Of a stretch of 64,000 bases of DNA, positions 55,174-64,000 are shown piece by piece (within the stretch, counting starts at the first letter, position 1; each line of letters begins with the position of its first letter). The DNA lies in the NCBI GenBank assembly GCA_963782055.1, contig CAWAIF010000003.1, positions 6,272,001-6,336,000 on the forward strand, written 5' to 3'. The position numbers and the translations under genes are program-made. A model generated the notes under the pieces. The model saw nothing but the letters and a program-made list of their open reading frames with translations, was not told the origin of the DNA and searched no databases. Source of the stretch: an uncultured delta proteobacterium (GTDB lineage: Bacteria; Myxococcota_A; Polyangia; Polyangiales; Polyangiaceae).

Positions 55174-55587
55174 CTACTCCTGGTCTGGGAATACTTCGAT
55201 CGAGAGATTCACTCCAAGGCGAGCCAGTTGCACCACACAAGCATGCGAAATGGTGAATCCTGCATTCTCGCGCCCAACCAATCCCAGGTACAGCTCGCAA
55301 CTGCCGCCCGTTTCCACGAAGTCGTGCAACCATTGCTCGTTCTCGACCAGACGACGTACCCATTCGCCGATCAGATCCTCCATGTCGAACACCTGAGGCA
55401 GTTCGCCGCACCAATAGGTTTCCTGGCGTCGACCCGTCAATGGGTGGCCCTTTGGAGTTCGACGCTCAGCTCCAACCTTCCAAGAATACAACGGTTGAAG
55501 GCCGAGCCTGCTGGTGACCTCTTCCGGGGCCATGCTCGGGTGCGTCAGGCGACAAGCGAGGCTGTTGGGAGGACACCTCGAGATCAT
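55174..55587 (-). CDS. Putative immunity protein (DUF4279-like)
   Basis: PEEVTSRLGLQP...WKVG...TYW...LARLGVNLSIEVF; lower GC; overlaps the toxin stop codon. Confidence 0.65.
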   Translation of the reverse strand: MISRCPPNSLACRLTHPSMAPEEVTSRLGLQPLYSWKVGAERRTPKGHPLTGRRQETYWCGELPQVFDMEDLIGEWVRRLVENEQWLHDFVETGGSCELYLGLVGRENAGFTISHACVVQLARLGVNLSIEVFPDQE

Positions 55588-56090
55588 GGAAGGTAATCCT
55601 CGACTGGGCCATTATCGATGGCGTTACCTTCACCATCCCCAGTTATCACATGCCCATCCGGAGCGATCCCGACCCAATCCTTTGGTCCTGCGAGGACTCC
55701 CTCCTTGATTTTCTGATGTTGTTTAGTCCATGGTGTCTGATTGATGGGTTTCGTCCCGGTCGGACAGCCCTTCGGCTTGGCTTCCTTGGATCGCGATTGG
55801 GGCGTCTCCGCGAATAGACCGATCTGGTCAGAAATCCGGTCTCCGATCTCACCTCCGTAGATGCCGCCGAAGTAGATACCCGCCAGTCCACCCACTCCCA
55901 TCCCTACGGTCGCCTCGGCTGGGGCACCCACCACAGCCGCCGGACCGGTAGTCAGAAGTCCCGTGCCACCTCCAGCGACGAAACCAAGATCCGCGCCGAT
56001 GGCGCCACCGCCGACCGCGCCGAGCACCGTACCGATGAAGCGCCCGAGTGGAGTGTATCCCGATGGATCGATGCAGTTGACCGGGTCGTC
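55584..56090 (-). pseudogene. Orphan Rhs C-terminal toxin module (resembles Ntox37) with no start codon before the DPxG junction
   Basis: Frame reads DDPVNCIDPSG-YTPLGRF...GTKPINQ...IKEGVLAGPKDWVGIAPDGHVITGDGEGNA; in-frame TGA at 56091-56093. Confidence 0.75.
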
Positions 56091-56267
56091 TCACGTGTGC
56101 GGGTGCGCGAGGTGCCGAGCGGGTGGCGGGACGGCGCTCGACGCGGGCGTCCCGGAGCGCGCAGCGGGCAGCCGTGCGTGCTCGGGGGGCGGTTTTTGGT
56201 GGCGCGGATGGACCGGGGCCTGGGCCGCACTCGTGGAGCGAGCGCAGTGGAGCACGACGCGGGGAGA

Positions 56268-57224
56268 TCATGCGGCCCTCGGCGGGGCGCGAGCTCGGGG
56301 CTCGGGCAGCGCGGTGCGCACGAGGGCAGGCGTGTGGCAAGCGGGGCAGCGGCGCAGGTCGATGCCCGCGATTCGCAGCAGCAGGTCGGCGGCGTCGGCA
56401 CGGCGCTCCGGTCGCGCAGCGGGCGCGTGCGGACCCAGTCTGCGGCGTGCGGTCTCGAGGCGCGTGGTGGCGTGGCTGGCGGAGTGCAGGCCGTAGTGGC
56501 GGATCTTGACGAAGCCGCGCGGCAGCACGTGCTGGACGAAGCGCGCGAGCAGCTCCTCGGCCGGGACGGTGACCGACTTGCCGTCTCTGGTGCGGAAGGT
56601 GACGCCGCGCTCGCCCATCGAGACGCCCATCACGCGCACGGGGAAGAGGAAGCGACGGCGCGCGCGCACCCAGCGCGCGGCGTCGCCGGTGAGTCCGCCG
56701 CCGGTGACGATGGCGTGCACGTGGGGGTGGAAGAGCAGCGCGCGCGTCCAGGTGTGCAGGACCATCGTGACGCCGAGCTCGGCGCCGAGCCACTTCGGAT
56801 CCCGCGCGAGGGTGGCCAGCGTGTCGGCCGCGCTCGCGAAGAGCATGTCGAAGACCCGCGCGCGCGAGCGCCGCGCGACGGCGCGCAGCTCGGCGGGGAG
56901 CGTGAAGACGACGTGGAAGTAGTGCACGGGCAGAATGCGCTCGAGCCGCGTGGCGACCCACCGCGCCTGCGCGAGCGACTGGCACTTGGGACAGTGCCGG
57001 TTGCGGCACGAGTTGTACGACGGTCGCTCGAGCCCGCACGCGGTGCACACGTCCAGATGTCCGCCCAGCGCGGCAGTCCGGCATCGCTCGATCGCCCGCA
57101 GCGCCGACCGCTCCTCGGGACGCAGCACGCGGCCGCCGGCGAAGGCCTCGCCGTGGGCGCGCACCACGTCCGCGAGCTCGATGGGCGCCGCGCGCGTGCG
57201 CGCGGGCGCACACGACGGGTGCAT
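56268..57224 (-). pseudogene. IS91-family (Y2/HUH) transposase with an internal in-frame deletion
   Basis: CRTAALGG, YNSCRNRHCPKCQ, YFHVVFTLP, HTW...HPHVH, VLPRGFVKIRHYG; FLFPVR is joined almost directly to VTFR and no YxxRY is present. Confidence 0.8.
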
Positions 57225-57230
57225 CGGGGC

Positions 57231-58076
57231 TCAGGGCAGCGCGTCGAGGGGGCTCTGAATCGACTGCACGCGGGCGGTGCTCACGTGCAGGTAGGCCATC
57301 GTGCTCCTGAGCGACGCGTGCCCGAGCAAGACCTGCAACGTGCGAAGGTCGGTCCCTGCGTCGAGCAGGTGCGTGGCGAAGCTGTGGCGCAGCGTGTGCG
57401 GCGACACGCGCCGGGTGATGCCCGCGCGCCGCGCCGCCTTGAGGATCGCCCGGTGGACGGCCGCGCGCGTGAGGAGCGTCCCGGGCACGCGCCCCGGAAA
57501 CAGTTGCGGTCCTGCGGGTCGTGACGCCTTCCAGTACGCGCGCAGCGTCGCCAGCAGCCTCGCGCTGAGCATCACGTAGCGCTCACGCCCGCGCTTGGTG
57601 TGCCGCACGTGCAGGAGCATCCGCTTCGGATCGATGTCGTCCACCCGGAGCTTGCACACCTCGCTCACGCGCAGCCCCGCCCCGTAGGCGAGCATCACCA
57701 GGGCCCGGTGCTTGTGGCTCGTGAGCGCCGCGAGCAGCCGCGCCACCTCCGCGCTCGTCAGCACCACCGGCACGTGCATCGGCACCCGCATGCGCGCCAT
57801 CCCCAGCGTCGCCTCCGGCCGCTCCAGCGTCACCTCGTAGAGAAACCTCAGCGCGGCCGCGTGCACGTTGACCGTCAACGCCGCCAGCCTGCGCTCCGCC
57901 ACCAGGTGCAAGAGGAACGTCCGGATCTCCGCCGCCCCCAGCGCGCACGGCGACCGCCCGTGGTACTGCGCGAACCGCCGCACGCACCCCACGTACGTGG
58001 CGATCGTGTTGGCGCTCATCCCTCGCAGCGCGAGGTCCTCGCTCATCGTGTCCCGCAGTCTTCGCTTCGCACCCAT
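57231..58076 (-). CDS. Tyrosine recombinase / integrase
   Basis: YGAGLRVSE, TKRGRER, HTLRHSFATHLL, LLGH, TMAY: catalytic residues intact. Confidence 0.92.
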   Translation of the reverse strand: MGAKRRLRDTMSEDLALRGMSANTIATYVGCVRRFAQYHGRSPCALGAAEIRTFLLHLVAERRLAALTVNVHAAALRFLYEVTLERPEATLGMARMRVPMHVPVVLTSAEVARLLAALTSHKHRALVMLAYGAGLRVSEVCKLRVDDIDPKRMLLHVRHTKRGRERYVMLSARLLATLRAYWKASRPAGPQLFPGRVPGTLLTRAAVHRAILKAARRAGITRRVSPHTLRHSFATHLLDAGTDLRTLQVLLGHASLRSTMAYLHVSTARVQSIQSPLDALP

Positions 58077-58369
58077 CGCGGCCTCCTTCGGCTCCGCGCG
58101 CGCCCACGAGCGGGCGGCGCGCGCCGCAGGATCGCCCGCATCACGGCACGCGAGGGCTACGAGGCGGGCTCGTCAGCGCGCACACGGCTCGCGGGGCTCC
58201 CGGGTCGCGAGCGAGCTTGATGCGGAGCCACGCTGCCGCGCAGCGGCTTCGTCCAAGATGGATTTCGTAAACTTTCGCGCCCGACCGCGCTAGGATTTCC
58301 TATGCGCCTACCGAGCAGAAGCTGGACGAAGCACGTCGGGCGCCACGATACTGCATGAGGTGCTGGAGG

Positions 58370-58468
58370 AGGCGAGGAACGTCTTGTAGGTGGTGTCGTA
58401 GTGGTAGTCGTCACGCAGGCGGGGGCGCCGGTGAAGGACTCGCTCTTCGTCGCGACGCGGCCGCTCGC
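58370..58468 (-). repeat. Degenerate duplicate of Rhs core segment 60313-60412
   Basis: By-eye alignment shows 3 substitutions and a 1-nt deletion over about 100 nt. Confidence 0.85.
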
Positions 58469-58520: not shown

Positions 58521-59057
58521 CTACCCTCCACCATCGCGCAGGACAAGCGGTGCCCCCAGCTCCCGGAGGGAAACAATATCTACGATCCGGTCGTGATCGG
58601 AGTCATAATAACCAATGAGCTCCACATATCTGCCTTGGCACGCGGAAAAGCTCGCGAGTTGCTCACACCTGATCCATAGCCAGTAGAACTCGTGGTCGGG
58701 GTTGCCAAAGGACCCTAGCCTCGAACCGAACTCTACATGCTCGAGTGCGCGGTCAACCACGTGACCGTGCATGGTGTAGGGGACCTCGCACCTGGGCGAC
58801 TGCATCGTGGCATCCGTGTCCAGCGCAAGCCATCCTCTGACCTTCACGGCCTCGTGTGGCATGCCGCGTTCGGGATACGCCAAGGGCCGCGCGGACGTCG
58901 GCGTGCCAGCACCAGCCGTATATGCACAGAGCGGCGTCAGTCCTCTGGATTGCATCGGGAGAGGCGGAGGCACGTTGGCGTTGCATTGCGCTCCAAGAGC
59001 GACGATCAGCGCACCGAGGGTAACCTGCACGAACTTACCACCCGCCGCGCAGCTCAC
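58521..59057 (-). CDS. Candidate cognate immunity protein (signal/lipobox-like N-terminus)
   Basis: GTGA overlap with the toxin stop; lower GC; VTLGALIVALGAQC. Confidence 0.55.
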   Translation of the reverse strand: MSCAAGGKFVQVTLGALIVALGAQCNANVPPPLPMQSRGLTPLCAYTAGAGTPTSARPLAYPERGMPHEAVKVRGWLALDTDATMQSPRCEVPYTMHGHVVDRALEHVEFGSRLGSFGNPDHEFYWLWIRCEQLASFSACQGRYVELIGYYDSDHDRIVDIVSLRELGAPLVLRDGGG

Positions 59058-62000
59058 GGCTGAAGCCTAAACGGGACGATTAGATTTGGCGCATTTGCGG
59101 CCGTCCGGAGTAGTTGCAGGCTGCGCGCTCCACTAATCCAGCTCTGCGGCGATTCGTTCGGGCGCGGTATGTTGACCGGCCATGTGGCCGGCGGTATGTA
59201 GATGTACCCGTACCCGAAGCCGCTTCCCTTCCTCGCGTCCACGTAGAGGATTGGGGTGTGGTTGTCGCAGGCTGTCTTTATGTCTGAGGGTGAAAACGAG
59301 CCCCCATTCGGGTGCGTATGAAAGATCACCTGCGCACCAGAGTGCCAACCGATGCCCCCTCCGGTCGGGCTCACTTGCTGTAACGTATACGAGAACTTGC
59401 CAGAACCGCTCTTGTAAAAGACCCCGCCCCACTCGTTGTGTGTCTGCTCCGTACCGGCAAGCGCGTCACGCAAGCCGCTTAAGAATGCGTCCGGGCCGTA
59501 GTCGTACCGCTCGCCCGGAGCGTACCCCGATGGATCGATGCAGTTCACCGGGTCATTCCCACAGTACGCGTAGAAGTTGAGCCCGCCGCCGAAGCGGATC
59601 GGGTCCTTGCTCAGCCAGCGGTGCTCCCAGCCGCTGTAGTCGCGGGCGCCCATGTGGTAGATGGCGGGGTAGTAGTCGAAGAGGCCGCCGGCGAAGCCGA
59701 AGGGCTGGTAGGCGGGCAGGCTGGTCATCGCGCCGAAGTCGTTGTAGTAGGTGTACGGGCCGTCGATGATGTTGCCGGGTGTGCCGCCACACGCCGGGCC
59801 GCTCAGGCAAATGACCGCGCGCGCCGTGCCGATCCCGTCGCTGACGATCCGCAGGATGCTACCATCGGCACGGTAGACCAGATCCGGGATGTTCGGCTTC
59901 GTCACGTAGGCGAAGTGGGCCGTGACGGCCCCGTTGCTGTCCAGGGTCGCGATGACTCGGTCGCCCTGGTAGAGGTACCCCGCGCTCTCGGCACCGGGCG
60001 GCTGGCTGCCGCTGCTGGTCCGGAAGACGAGGCGCCCCTGGCCGTCGATGGCGTAGTCGAGCGTCACGTTGCTGGATGGATCGGAGTAGTGACGGAGGTT
60101 GCCGAGGGGATCGTAGCCGAAGCTCTGGGTCTGCCCGCTCCGGTGGCGGACCACGGCCTCGCCGTTGGAGGAGTAGTCCCAGGTCCAGTAGCCGTCATTG
60201 ATGAGCCGATCCTGCGCGTCGTACGTCCACGCGCTCCCGGCGCCGCCGTTGCCGTCGGCGTCATAGGGGGTGTTCGCGGGCGGGGCCGCGCAGCCCCCGG
60301 TGGTGGTGGAGTAGGCGAGGAACGTCTTGTAGGTCGTGTCGTAGTGGTAGGTCGTCACGCAGGCGGCGGCGCCGTTGAAGGACTCGCTCTTCGTCGCGAC
60401 GCGGCCGCTCGCAGGATCGCGAGTGTAGACCAGAGCGTAGCGCGGCTGAGCGTTATAGGTGATCGTGTCGCTGATCAACGCCCCGTAGCGGTCGTAGTTG
60501 AACTCCTCGTGGAGGTGGTTGTTGTCGGTGTCCGTGCTCGCGAGCATGCGGTTGTAACCGTTCGCGCCGCGGTTGAGCGTCATGGTCATGCCCCCCACAT
60601 CGACCGCGCTGAGCACGCCGTCGCCGTCCAGGTGGAAGGTGTACCCGAGGCCACCGTCGATGTCGCGCGTGGTCAGCCGGCCGTAGCCATCGTAGCCGTA
60701 GTTGACTTTGCGCGTGGCGTTGGGCGACGTGAGCCCGTAGGTCTCCTGCGTCAGCATCGAGCCCTCGTAGCTGTAGGTGAGGTCGACCTGGCCGTTGTCG
60801 AGGGTGTGCAGGTGCCCCGTCGACTCGTACGCGTACTGGTTCGTGACGGTCCCGGTGAACGGCGCGAAGTAGCTCACCGCGGACGGACGCCCGGCGCCGT
60901 CATACGCGTAGCTCACCGTGCGACCAGGTTCCTGCATGCTCGTCGTGAGGCCATCCAGATCGTAAAGGTAGCTGGTCGGGCCGGTGGCGCCAACGGGCGG
61001 TGGCGTGTAGGTGTCGAGCAGGTCCAGAGGGGTCGCGGAGAACTGGTGCCACTTTCCCGCGGGGGTGTCCGCCCAGGTTACGTTGCCGTTCGGGTCGTAG
61101 TACCGGAACAGCGTTCGGCCGGGAATGCTGAACCGCTGGGGTCGACCCACAGGGTCGAACATCGAGTAGCCGTACGTGCCGATGCCCGGCACGTCGATGG
61201 AGGCCACCGCTCCGGTCGCGCCGTCGTACGTGAGGTTCGTGATGCGCGAGTTGACGGTGTAGGTCTCGAGCTGTCCGGTCGCGGGGTAGTAGCCGATCTG
61301 CACCGGGTAGAGCGGCGCGTTCGCGCCCGGCACGTTCCCCGTCACCTGGATGCTGGACGGACGCTCATGCTGGCTGTCCAGCGTGATCTCCGTCCTGGCG
61401 CCGGCGGCGCTGGTCTCGGTGACCTTCGACTGGCTCGAGTCGTACTGGGCCGTCCAGGTGAGGGTGTTGTTGTCGATGTCGGACCGGGTGGTGGTGTCTG
61501 TCTCGGACGTCACGTCGTCGGTCTGCGGATCGGTGACGACCATGCTCGAGTGGGTGGTGGTGACCGTCTTGGTGCCGTCGACCACCACGCCCTTCGCCGG
61601 GTAGCTCGCGTTCACGCCGAAGCGGGGGTCGGGGGCGTACGTGCTGGAGATCTGCGTTCCGTCGCGGAGCGAGACGTCCTCCGATCCGTCGGCGTACGTC
61701 GTGTGGGTGGACAGCTGGCCCGCCGGATCCGTGATGATCCGCGACTCCACCTGGTTGGTGCCCTCGTCGCCGGTCGCGCCACGGGTGGTGTCGACGGAGT
61801 AGGTGGTCGCGCGGGATTCCGCGGTGGTCAGCGCGACGTTCCACCCGCTGCCCGTCACGGGCATCGAACGCGCCAGGGTGACCCCGGGCGAGCTCTGCGG
61901 GTTCTTGTCGTTGGTCAGGAGGCCGACGCTGTCGTACGTGAAGTGGTGGTGCTGGCCCTTCGCGTCGGTGAGGTCGGTGAGCAGGCCGCCGGTGCCGTAG

Positions 62001-64000
62001 GCGAGCTGGATCGTCTCGTTGTTGGCGTTGACAATTCCCGCGAGGTAGAGCGTGCCGCCGTAGTCCTGGAACTCCAGCGTCGTCGGCTCGTTGCTCGCGA
62101 TCCCGGTCGGGGGCGTGATGCTCTTGCAGTCGTCGAAGCCGCAGGAGGAGCCGGCGTCGGTAATCTGGGTGACGTTGTCGTAGTCATCCGTGATGGAGGA
62201 CAAGACGCCCCCGGTGTACGCGAGGGTCTCGAGTGGTACGCCTCGGTAGCGGCTGAGGGTGGCGACGTGCTGCCCGCTGCTGTCGAACTTGTAAATGGCG
62301 GAGCCGTCGGGGCTCAACAGGCGGTAGCCCGCGGTCGGGTCCGGCGTGCCGAGGGGCTGCAAGGCCCGGACGATCGTGCCCGTGTTCCAGTTGCTGGGTT
62401 CACGGCTGGTGTAGAACAGCGATCCGTCCTGCCCGTCGGCCAGTCCCACCAGCTCCGAGCCGCCGCCGTGACCGCCGCCCGTGGCGGGCGCGCCGTCCAC
62501 GTAGGCGATCGTATTCTGCCCGCTGTTGACGATGCAGCTGCTACCTACCACCGTTGACATGGTCCCGTCTGGCTCGATCCGGCGCACTGCAGCCTGGCCC
62601 TTGTCGGCGATGTACAGCGCTCCGGCCTTCCACAGCAGCCGCTGGGGGGCATCGAGCGGCGCTAGGGTTGCCGCGTTCCCATCGCCCCAGTCATGGGGGC
62701 AGGCGTTCCCGTAAACACCGTCGTCGAATCCGTTGCCGCCCGCGGCGACGTGCAGCTTGCCGTCGGTGGACACGCGGAACACTACCGCGCGACTCAGGGC
62801 TGCCCCCTCCTCGGAGAAATAGACATCGCCGTTCGGGGCGACGGCCACGCCTTCGACGTCCTGCAGGGCATAGCTCGTCGCGGCCTGCCCTTCCATCGTG
62901 GCGAGGTCCGCCAGGTTGCCATTCCCAGAGCCGGCGATCGTCTCCAAAACGCCGTCAGTCCGTACGCGCCGGACCTCTGACTCCACCTTCCCGCGGTTAT
63001 CGACGAACACGACGCTGCCATCGGGGGCGGTGGTGATCGCGCTCACGGTGTTCAGGGAGGCCGCCGTTGCCAGGCCCCCGGCGGCCTCGAAGTGCCCATC
63101 CGTTCGGCACCCAAGCTGGGAAGGCCGCGCGTCGCCGGCGAGCACCGTCGTGTGAGCGTTGCTCCAATGGGGTGGATTGTCCGTCGGGGCGTCCACGTGG
63201 AGCACGTCGCATGCGCCTCCGACGAGCACCGCGCCGTCCCGCGCCGGAGCCACGGCCTGGCCGTTCACGTACACGCTCCCGAGGTTAGTGCCGTTGCTCG
63301 GCACCGGTGGGGCGCCGGCATCGACGCTCGACACGATCGTGTTGCCGGGAAACGCCCTCACCGCGCCGCTGTAGAGTCCGATGTCGGCGGCGAGTATGGT
63401 TCCGTTGCTGTCGCTCGTGGCCGTCAGCCCTCCCAGCTGATCCGAGGTGTCCTCCTGCCGCACCATGTCCGGAAGCTGGGTCGCGGTCCGCTTCTCTCCA
63501 TACCCCGTCCAGAGCGTGCCACTGCTCGGCTCGTACACGTGCTCCGCGCTCAGGGTCCACCCGCCGAAGCCGAGGGGTTGGGCGTCGAGTGCGTCGAGCC
63601 GCACGTCGTAGTCGCGGCGCAGAAAGATCACCCGCTCGTTGCGGTCACCATCCACGACCACGTCGCCACCGGTCCCGAAGGAGCCGAAGGTGGGGGTGAG
63701 GCCGGAGGGCGTCGCCGTGTAGGCGTAGGCCACGCGGACGTGGGCGACCACCGAGCCCTGGATCGGCCGCCCGTACGCGTCCTCGCGATTCCACGCCCAC
63801 GACACCGACTGGTTCTTCTTGTTCGCGTCGAGCGGCGTGAAGAGGGCCCGCTGGCCCGCGACGTCGATCTCCACCTCGGCGTAGTTCGGGGCGACCTGGA
63901 GCGTCGTGTTGTCGGTGTACGGAACCGTGATGACCGGGTGGAATCCGCGCTGCGTCTCGCTCCGGTAGTGCAGGCTGTACGGAGTTCCGGCGATCGGGAT
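59054..64000 (-). CDS. Teneurin-like NHL/YD-repeat Rhs protein with a JAB/DUF4329-like C-terminal toxin; runs off the right edge
   Basis: Frame open to 64000 (IPIAGTPYSLHYRS); EIDVAGQ...WNREDAYGR, GGWTLSAEHVY; NHL-like repeats; YD repeats; GFAGG...ARDY...WLSKDP...DPVNCIDPSG; tip NEWGG...HTHP...FSPSD. Confidence 0.88.
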   Translation of the reverse strand: MPIAGTPYSLHYRSETQRGFHPVITVPYTDNTTLQVAPNYAEVEIDVAGQRALFTPLDANKKNQSVSWAWNREDAYGRPIQGSVVAHVRVAYAYTATPSGLTPTFGSFGTGGDVVVDGDRNERVIFLRRDYDVRLDALDAQPLGFGGWTLSAEHVYEPSSGTLWTGYGEKRTATQLPDMVRQEDTSDQLGGLTATSDSNGTILAADIGLYSGAVRAFPGNTIVSSVDAGAPPVPSNGTNLGSVYVNGQAVAPARDGAVLVGGACDVLHVDAPTDNPPHWSNAHTTVLAGDARPSQLGCRTDGHFEAAGGLATAASLNTVSAITTAPDGSVVFVDNRGKVESEVRRVRTDGVLETIAGSGNGNLADLATMEGQAATSYALQDVEGVAVAPNGDVYFSEEGAALSRAVVFRVSTDGKLHVAAGGNGFDDGVYGNACPHDWGDGNAATLAPLDAPQRLLWKAGALYIADKGQAAVRRIEPDGTMSTVVGSSCIVNSGQNTIAYVDGAPATGGGHGGGSELVGLADGQDGSLFYTSREPSNWNTGTIVRALQPLGTPDPTAGYRLLSPDGSAIYKFDSSGQHVATLSRYRGVPLETLAYTGGVLSSITDDYDNVTQITDAGSSCGFDDCKSITPPTGIASNEPTTLEFQDYGGTLYLAGIVNANNETIQLAYGTGGLLTDLTDAKGQHHHFTYDSVGLLTNDKNPQSSPGVTLARSMPVTGSGWNVALTTAESRATTYSVDTTRGATGDEGTNQVESRIITDPAGQLSTHTTYADGSEDVSLRDGTQISSTYAPDPRFGVNASYPAKGVVVDGTKTVTTTHSSMVVTDPQTDDVTSETDTTTRSDIDNNTLTWTAQYDSSQSKVTETSAAGARTEITLDSQHERPSSIQVTGNVPGANAPLYPVQIGYYPATGQLETYTVNSRITNLTYDGATGAVASIDVPGIGTYGYSMFDPVGRPQRFSIPGRTLFRYYDPNGNVTWADTPAGKWHQFSATPLDLLDTYTPPPVGATGPTSYLYDLDGLTTSMQEPGRTVSYAYDGAGRPSAVSYFAPFTGTVTNQYAYESTGHLHTLDNGQVDLTYSYEGSMLTQETYGLTSPNATRKVNYGYDGYGRLTTRDIDGGLGYTFHLDGDGVLSAVDVGGMTMTLNRGANGYNRMLASTDTDNNHLHEEFNYDRYGALISDTITYNAQPRYALVYTRDPASGRVATKSESFNGAAACVTTYHYDTTYKTFLAYSTTTGGCAAPPANTPYDADGNGGAGSAWTYDAQDRLINDGYWTWDYSSNGEAVVRHRSGQTQSFGYDPLGNLRHYSDPSSNVTLDYAIDGQGRLVFRTSSGSQPPGAESAGYLYQGDRVIATLDSNGAVTAHFAYVTKPNIPDLVYRADGSILRIVSDGIGTARAVICLSGPACGGTPGNIIDGPYTYYNDFGAMTSLPAYQPFGFAGGLFDYYPAIYHMGARDYSGWEHRWLSKDPIRFGGGLNFYAYCGNDPVNCIDPSGYAPGERYDYGPDAFLSGLRDALAGTEQTHNEWGGVFYKSGSGKFSYTLQQVSPTGGGIGWHSGAQVIFHTHPNGGSFSPSDIKTACDNHTPILYVDARKGSGFGYGYIYIPPATWPVNIPRPNESPQSWISGARSLQLLRTAANAPNLIVPFRLQP

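Follow-up and report, generated by a model that had tools for sequence, protein, structure and literature searches.

Bacterial teneurin-like proteins (TLPs) were defined as a family in February 2026 by Raoelijaona et al. (PMC13018210), whose accessible text places them in 139 genomes and in more than 20% of Myxococcota species, with up to four copies per genome. As described there, Gram-negative TLPs carry SPII (signal peptidase II) signals, and TLP tips are encapsulated domains of about 15 kDa. Three of nine tested tips were toxic to E. coli, immunity was shown for one pair, and the tip of the Bacillus inaquosorum TLP (BiTLP) was toxic only with a signal peptide added; the same text leaves the delivery route open and communication roles possible. 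A second set of described systems comprises the Tox-JAB-1 and Tox-JAB-2/DUF4329 tips of Rhs proteins, including E. coli RhsB with YhhH (PMC3482391, in the portions available). Here we analyze a 64,000-nucleotide stretch from an uncultured delta proteobacterium (contig CAWAIF010000003.1, positions 6,272,001 to 6,336,000; hereafter the window), which contains most of a TLP gene. The tip of this TLP is a predicted JAB-type metal hydrolase, and the gene that follows encodes a likely exported partner. This pair, which an earlier sequence-only reading of the window had missed, is the most interesting part of the locus. Its features are as follows.

59054-64000, minus strand: TLP gene, residues 639-2286 of 2,286; a single open frame that is already open at 64000 and has its stop at 59054
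63461-63997, minus strand: FN-plug region, aligning to BiTLP 738-927
62411-63460, minus strand: NHL beta-propeller region (approximate bounds), from Pfam TEN_NHL (E 2e-9, over cut-off) and the BiTLP alignment
59525-62410, minus strand: YD shell and Rhs core with autoprotease motif R2091, D2104 (DPIR) and D2127 (DPSG), from the BiTLP alignment
59057-59527, minus strand: variable tip, 157 aa, of predicted JAB/MPN (DUF4329-like) fold, with JAMM residues E2161, H2199, H2201, S2208 and D2211
58521-59057, minus strand: candidate immunity gene, 178 aa, with a GTG start that overlaps the TLP stop (GTGA) and a hydrophobic N-terminus ending in LGAQC

Searched against the PDB with phmmer, the C-terminal 1,648 residues encoded inside the window match the Bacillus TLP best (9IFO/9PT5, E 3e-85 to 9e-85). 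Residues 2-180 of this part align to BiTLP 738-927 and residues 304-1493 to BiTLP 1049-2144 (NHL and YD shell); animal teneurins come next in the list (E 4e-15 to 6e-8), with two Rhs entries interleaved at 4e-13 and 3e-12. The N-terminal 671 residues also match BiTLP best (E 1e-58), and their TTR domain is found by Pfam TTR_TEN1-4 (E 3e-13) and matches TEN2/3/4 at E 2e-7 to 6e-6. A TIP-equivalent region follows the TTR domain, in a continuous alignment to BiTLP 190-757, and the Rhs core scores over the TIGR03696 cut-off. Sequence comparison confirms the gene as a bacterial TLP and a relative of animal teneurins. The teneurin superfold proposed by the sequence-only reading holds from TTR to Rhs core, with FN-plug, NHL and YD shell directly following one another in a single frame; the comparison is a sequence alignment to BiTLP and not a structural superposition. 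The motifs behind that proposal are likewise all in frame: IPIAGTPYSLHYRS, EIDVAGQ..WNREDAYGR and GGWTLSAEHVY, the YD shell, a PxxxxDPxG motif (PVNCIDPSG, 59551-59525) and a low-GC tip (60.5% GC; core 67.8%, window 72.4%). The label "myxobacterial" is plausible, given 72% GC and a closest tip-bearing TLP that lies in a Polyangiaceae metagenome-assembled genome (MAG).

As had been stated, the window does not reach the N-terminus. The gene starts with an ATG at window-equivalent 65914 and is intact in the genome (2,286 aa); an alternative ATG 89 codons further upstream was rejected, its extension having low GC at third codon positions and being taken as non-coding. The protein begins MGLTKLRISGRSAAMLVLAVVIGLSC, downstream of a GGAGG site, and by inspection has a basic n-region, a hydrophobic stretch and Cys26 (..VIGLSC26), a lipoprotein-like start from which we predict a lipid anchor on the cell surface. 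Reading the upstream sequence had been suggested as a check, and it yields this signal and TTR/TIP, with no PAAR. After the signal, in the place of the bacterial Ig domains of BiTLP, come Cys-rich repeats that are CTDC-like but score under the Pfam cut-off. In other respects the TTR-TIP-FN-plug-NHL-YD order and both cleavage-site motifs are those of BiTLP (PMC13018210, sections available). The N-terminal site C621-K-H-V-G625/S626 aligns to BiTLP C719..G723-S724 (CKHVGS versus CNKEGS), and the bipartite Rhs protease motif keeps its upstream Arg (R2091), with a spacing of R-13-D-23-D versus 13 and 24 in BiTLP. The accessible text of the source paper mentions the DPIR variant for TLPs and gives R2103/D2116/D2140 as the BiTLP counterparts. 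By analogy with the family, autoproteolysis is predicted at both conserved sites. Animal teneurins (TEN2/3/4, Ten-m) share the superfold and TTR homology; unlike them, the focal TLP lacks an intracellular domain, a transmembrane helix, EGF repeats and ABD/Tox-GHH, and its DPxG protease motif, absent from mammalian teneurins, is retained.

We assigned the tip from its motif and from a structural model. In an alignment of JAB tips the E, H, H and S of the JAMM motif are invariant in 13/13 sequences and the D is nearly so. A model of the focal tip built from four sequences (predicted local distance difference test, pLDDT, 67.6) gave a fold search in which all of the top 16 matches belong to the MPN/JAMM family (Z 5.1-6.5, root-mean-square deviation 3.5-5.0 Å over 91-125 aligned residues); a single-sequence model (pLDDT 37) was discarded. 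The nearest Atlas clusters are DUF4329 (0.93) and Toxin-JAB1 (0.92). A search of 1.84 billion representatives returned four matches: a fragment of an Rhs/TLP core (48%), a TLP of 3,041 aa (46%), the protein P0006, and the repeat protein P0005, which was dropped as an artefact. P0006 (E 5e-4 to the tip) itself scores over the DUF4329 Pfam cut-off. Since the link to DUF4329 is transitive only, through P0006 and Atlas, we call the tip DUF4329-like; PF14220 (DUF4329/Tox-JAB-2) matched neither the tip nor any protein in the whole genome (G000). Word-index homologue searches for tip and partner gave no matches, and a profile of the 13 JAB tips searched against solved structures found weak JAMM/MPN matches only (E 0.08-0.85) and no solved toxin JAB structure. 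As modeled, the tip has a complete JAMM motif and is predicted to be a metal hydrolase of the JAB type. Four loci with weak or non-toxin matches (L009, L010, L013 and L014: a transposase frame; phage-like JAB proteins) were not counted, nor was L012, whose match statistics equal those of L011. The proteins at L010, L013 and L014 end in a JAB-like domain with HNHP..SPSD and are, we assume, phage head-morphogenesis-like.

As in the Tox-JAB Rhs tips (PMC3482391, text available in part), the focal tip combines an E..HxH..S..D motif with a JAB fold, follows DPxG and has a partner gene directly downstream. Unlike those tips, it is carried by a TLP and not by a type VI secretion system (T6SS) Rhs protein, it is too divergent for a direct PF14220 match, and its partner is neither Imm-NTF2-2 nor Imm65. 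Judged by its N-terminus, the partner is likely exported, and we regard it as a candidate immunity protein. A homologue in a Polyangiaceae MAG (L008; 33% identical, E 4e-19) has a clear LTAC lipobox and sits directly after a homologous tip with the same stop/start overlap, indicating that tip and partner travel together; the candidate immunity gene of the sequence-only reading is borne out to this extent. An OB-fold lead for the partner is weak (Atlas scores 0.79-0.81 only), profile comparison with the L020 partner was not significant (E 0.038, probability 1.4%), and a tip-partner complex prediction (score 0.00, controls not folded) was given no weight either way. In the same MAG the TLP is followed by two more orphan core-tip cassettes (L008:4453-8438), one of which retains a long remnant of the shell.

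Set beside published TLPs (PMC13018210, parts accessible), the carrier is a plain member of a known family, sharing the up to four copies per genome, the small variable C-terminal domain and the adjacent candidate immunity gene; its N-terminus resembles, by inspection, the SPII type of Myxococcota TLPs. Its description as a polymorphic toxin carrier is upheld, and the roles proposed for it, kin discrimination or predation, are putative. It differs from published TLPs in its JAB/MPN tip, in an exported-type partner of unclassified family and in a decayed orphan cassette downstream. The new part is the JAB tip with its likely exported partner: the text parts and searchable supplements of that paper (an image file excepted) contain no JAB, MPN or DUF4329 terms, and its searchable supplements contain none of HTHP, HSHP, FHTH or YHTH, which alignment gaps or the image file could hide. 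With its family published, the carrier is less under-described than the earlier reading claimed.

We next asked what kind of protein follows JAB tips generally, taking at each locus the best coding-like open reading frame (ORF) that starts -35 to +90 nt from the tip stop, and scoring a signal where mean hydropathy reaches at least 2.0 over 10 D/E-free residues within the first 45 aa. Such a hydrophobic N-terminal signal is present on the next gene at 25/28 JAB-tip loci overall, comprising 14/16 partners in a discovery set and 11/12 in a held-out set (10/12 without L091). The discovery set consists of nine loci (eight pass), L025 (a JAMM tip found in the Rhs control set and moved), Acidobacteriota-side loci (4/4 pass), E. 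coli YhhH (pass) and Tenacibaculum (fail); for the last three a plausible ORF was hand-picked from candidates or the annotated gene was taken. For the held-out set, 401 genomes were searched class-wide with a profile; of the 17 matches, four already counted and one without a downstream ORF were dropped. Among controls, signals were scored for 8/23 partners of non-JAB Rhs tips (30 loci, 24 scorable, L025 removed) and 2/9 of non-JAB TLP tips (scorable, from 12 regions), with 10/32 for the pooled other Rhs/TLP tips, and for 1/10 partners of AHH tips, which are true cytoplasmic nucleases. Nominal Fisher p values are 0.0016 (held-out versus Rhs) and 5e-6 (overall), both of which make the case look stronger than it is, kin not being independent. 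The JAB-tip partners are mostly unrelated to one another, and many of their hydrophobic stretches end in Cys. Since immunity proteins sit where their toxin acts, these exported-type partners suggest that the JAB tip probably works in the periplasm.

Stand-alone DUF4329 proteins have a signal of their own in 4/4 cases by the same rule (one genus), with two more by eye. Six such proteins (L016, L017, L018, L021, L022 and L071) have signal-like N-termini and no toxin carrier; they are possible periplasmic JAMM housekeeping enzymes. Hydrophobic signal-like N-termini also occur in E. coli YhhH (L068:693-1076) and in an Imm-NTF2-2 protein (L011:1686-2024), both following DUF4329 tips. Zhang 2012 (PMC3482391) recorded Imm65, the Tox-JAB-1 immunity protein, as a lipoprotein and viral Tox-JAB-2 as secreted; in its available text Imm65 is treated as an exception and the periplasmic conclusion is not drawn.

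We give a probability of about 65% to a model in which the surface-displayed TLP frees a JAB hydrolase tip that harms a neighbour's envelope, with the exported partner protecting the producer. The TLP would be exported by Sec, lipidated and displayed at the surface, and would cleave itself at both sites with the tip kept encapsulated in the shell. Contact with a neighbouring cell would release the tip, which would hydrolyse an envelope amide there in a zinc-dependent reaction; the resulting toxicity would be neutralised in kin by the exported partner. In this scheme SPII export, self-cleavage with encapsulation, toxicity and immunity are extrapolated from the accessible account of PMC13018210. 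As a speculative first guess, which we would sooner bet against than for, the bond cut might be a peptidoglycan cross-link or another envelope amide. The cross-link suggests itself because JAMM enzymes hydrolyse Gly-epsilon-Lys isopeptides, and the D-Ala-meso-diaminopimelate cross-link resembles that Gly-Lys isopeptide. We hold as tentative the wider proposal that JAB toxin tips are unrecognised periplasmic zinc isopeptidases acting on an envelope amide such as that cross-link, and that exported immunity proteins with a wide range of unrelated folds neutralise them; the focal TLP would deliver one such isopeptidase without a T6SS from a surface lipid anchor. The JAMM enzymes known are deubiquitinases that work inside cells; periplasmic action, if true, would imply a new extracellular JAMM substrate. 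It would also change the annotation of a widespread family whose toxin versions are labelled nucleases without evidence; 2,693/5,426 E. coli genomes carry the RhsB/yhhH segment at ≥80% coverage.

Several points weigh against this model. For the tip itself, the Pfam match to Prok-JAB (E 0.009) is below cut-off and all fold Z-scores are below 8. The signal rule is our own hydropathy rule rather than SignalP, and it cannot tell a signal peptide from a membrane anchor; the lipoboxes of the focal TLP (GLSC) and its partner (GAQC) are non-canonical. Among the surveyed loci, the L091 ORF is doubtful, the partners at L066 (Tenacibaculum) and L102 have no signal, that at L020 misses the numeric rule, and independence is lacking, with L095, L098 and L099 sharing a partner family. 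The JAB pocket has been argued to be unsuited to general peptidase work (PMC3239186, in the text available), and searches of the open-access literature gave no paper that assays a Tox-JAB tip or places one in the periplasm. Published predictions also point elsewhere: Tox-JAB was predicted to be a nuclease by analogy to RadC (PMC3482391), and an RNase label is repeated in PMC10469887 and in bioRxiv 10.1101/2024.03.05.583533, which, in the parts available, also calls JAB-tip activity unknown.

These predictions define an alternative in which the tip acts as a nuclease in the cytoplasm and the exported partner would catch it in the periplasm, ahead of its uptake. It draws further on RadC (2QLC) and cytidine deaminases, which appear in the tip fold list at Z 5.0, and on the two partners without a signal. 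The excess of export-type partners at JAB tips over AHH nucleases, and the signal peptides of stand-alone DUF4329 proteins, speak for extracytoplasmic action instead, and we consider a nuclease unlikely.

A further alternative bears on the function of the carrier, for which the other TLP copies of the genome are informative. Four TLP loci with unrelated tips, and one fragment, were found in G000.

Window 59054 to window-equivalent 65914, minus strand: focal TLP locus, intact
C3:2.234-2.241 Mb: TLP paralogue, intact, 78% identity to the focal TLP
C3:1.494-1.503 Mb: TLP paralogue, 88% identity, split by an insertion near residue 185
C2:3.8-12.3 kb: TLP paralogue, 36% identity, split by a transposase that we take to be IS66-like
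C3:5.241-5.244 Mb: TLP shell fragment

The close paralogues are 94-95% identical at residues 2001-2100 and 13-21% identical after residue 2200. Paralogue tips (127-172 aa) are unrelated and each has its own downstream gene; the tip of the second paralogue is also JAB-like, at only ~18% identity to the focal tip. The conserved core end, the unrelated tips and their separate downstream genes are direct evidence of tip exchange, and the swappable tips of the sequence-only reading are thus seen within one genome. Short DNA contigs of the sequencing runs showed no tip-swapping joints and are uninformative on this point. Searches of the 97%-complete genome for VgrG, TssC and PAAR, which were positive in E. 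coli controls, found none of them; near-identical carriers (78-88%) bear different tips in an organism where a T6SS was not found. None of six same-genus genomes (84-98% complete) has a TLP match, and 16 of 40 other genomes compared have some Rhs/TLP match.

Animal teneurins are adhesion receptors, and the TLP might likewise serve mainly adhesion or kin recognition, its shell binding like cells, its tip serving as a processed signal or as a processing enzyme, and the lipoprotein as a receptor or chaperone and not as an immunity protein. The paralogues differ most at the N-terminal 200 residues and at the tip, a delivery machine is neither known nor found, and both the communication roles left open and the toxicity to E. 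coli of only three of nine tips (PMC13018210, as accessible) would fit. Against this, the hallmarks of polymorphic toxins are seen: tip-partner pairs that are low in GC and swappable, orphan cassettes, catalytic JAMM residues and a patchy distribution; we think an adhesive role improbable as the main one. Less probable still, the tip could be a deubiquitinase-like enzyme used against eukaryotic grazers or prey, with the partner only keeping it inactive during export. Its best fold matches are Rpn11, CSN5, BRCC36 and PfJAMM1, and JAMM enzymes act on ubiquitin-like tails (PMC3239186, available text); it is, however, only 7-19% identical to those structures, its kind of partner is diverse and tip-specific, and toxin JABs have immunity genes and no residues lining the ubiquitin-tail tunnel (PMC3482391, portions available). 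A conventional T6SS-delivered Rhs effector, to which the Rhs core and YD repeats would be suited, is effectively refuted by the N-terminal signal and TTR/TIP without PAAR in the TLP and by the lack of VgrG, TssC and PAAR in the genome, of which ~3% is unassembled.

Downstream of the partner gene lies the orphan cassette.

58359-58468, minus strand: frameshifted YD-shell scar at the start of a decayed orphan module, 94.6% identical to 60302-60412
56091-58308, minus strand: element with integrase and IS91-type (Y2) transposase, ~99% identical to other genome copies
55584-56090, minus strand: orphan core end (DDPVNCIDPSG) and an unrelated 158-aa tip, in which a hydrophobic, glycine-rich segment precedes a small unclassified domain
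55174-55587, minus strand: DUF4279 protein (Pfam PF14106, E 5e-9, over cut-off), overlapping the orphan stop

An orphan cassette had been noted before and is present at 56090-55174, in a degraded state and fused to a truncated insertion sequence (IS); with ~38 bp of core homology left, it would be a weak recombination donor. The 158-aa tip has no Pfam match, and the DUF4279 protein is a candidate cytoplasmic immunity protein for it. A second orphan tip end with DUF4279 (L006, G000:C3:2,725,095-2,725,744) is 84% identical, frameshifted, and lies beside a repeat/IS end. The window copy of the integrase/IS91-type element has lost 200 bp internally and is cut short at its right end, and it appears to sit inside a ~100-bp repeat (58215-58312) with inverted inner ends (GCATAAG..CCTATGC; by eye, attC-like). 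This repeat has ~20 copies in the genome, clustering at C3 2.72-2.74, 4.41-4.49 and 5.17-5.27 Mb, 0.1-10 kb apart, among Rhs tip cassettes; it may be a miniature inverted-repeat transposable element or a cassette-array site. TIGR03696 finds 12 cores in the genome, and further non-TLP Rhs cores with distinct tips lie in repeat-rich regions at G000:C3:4,421,520, 5,246,681, 5,249,639 and 5,252,672.

A divergently oriented ~800-aa gene with a signal-like start, HYDIN/ASH Ig domains and RCC1 repeats lies beside all four TLP loci.

L001:13086-15599 (window-equivalent 66085-68598): copy at the focal locus, with an in-frame stop at 66766-66768
C3:1.503 Mb, C3:2.241 Mb and C2:12.4-17.5 kb (two tandem copies): copies at the other loci

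It had no matches in 15 regions from other genomes, many ending at contig ends, and we treat it as a co-duplicated neighbour and not as a shown part of the system. In another genome (G019:C145, L081), a TLP frame of more than 4,400 codons runs on for ~1,150 residues after the core motif, well over the usual tip size.

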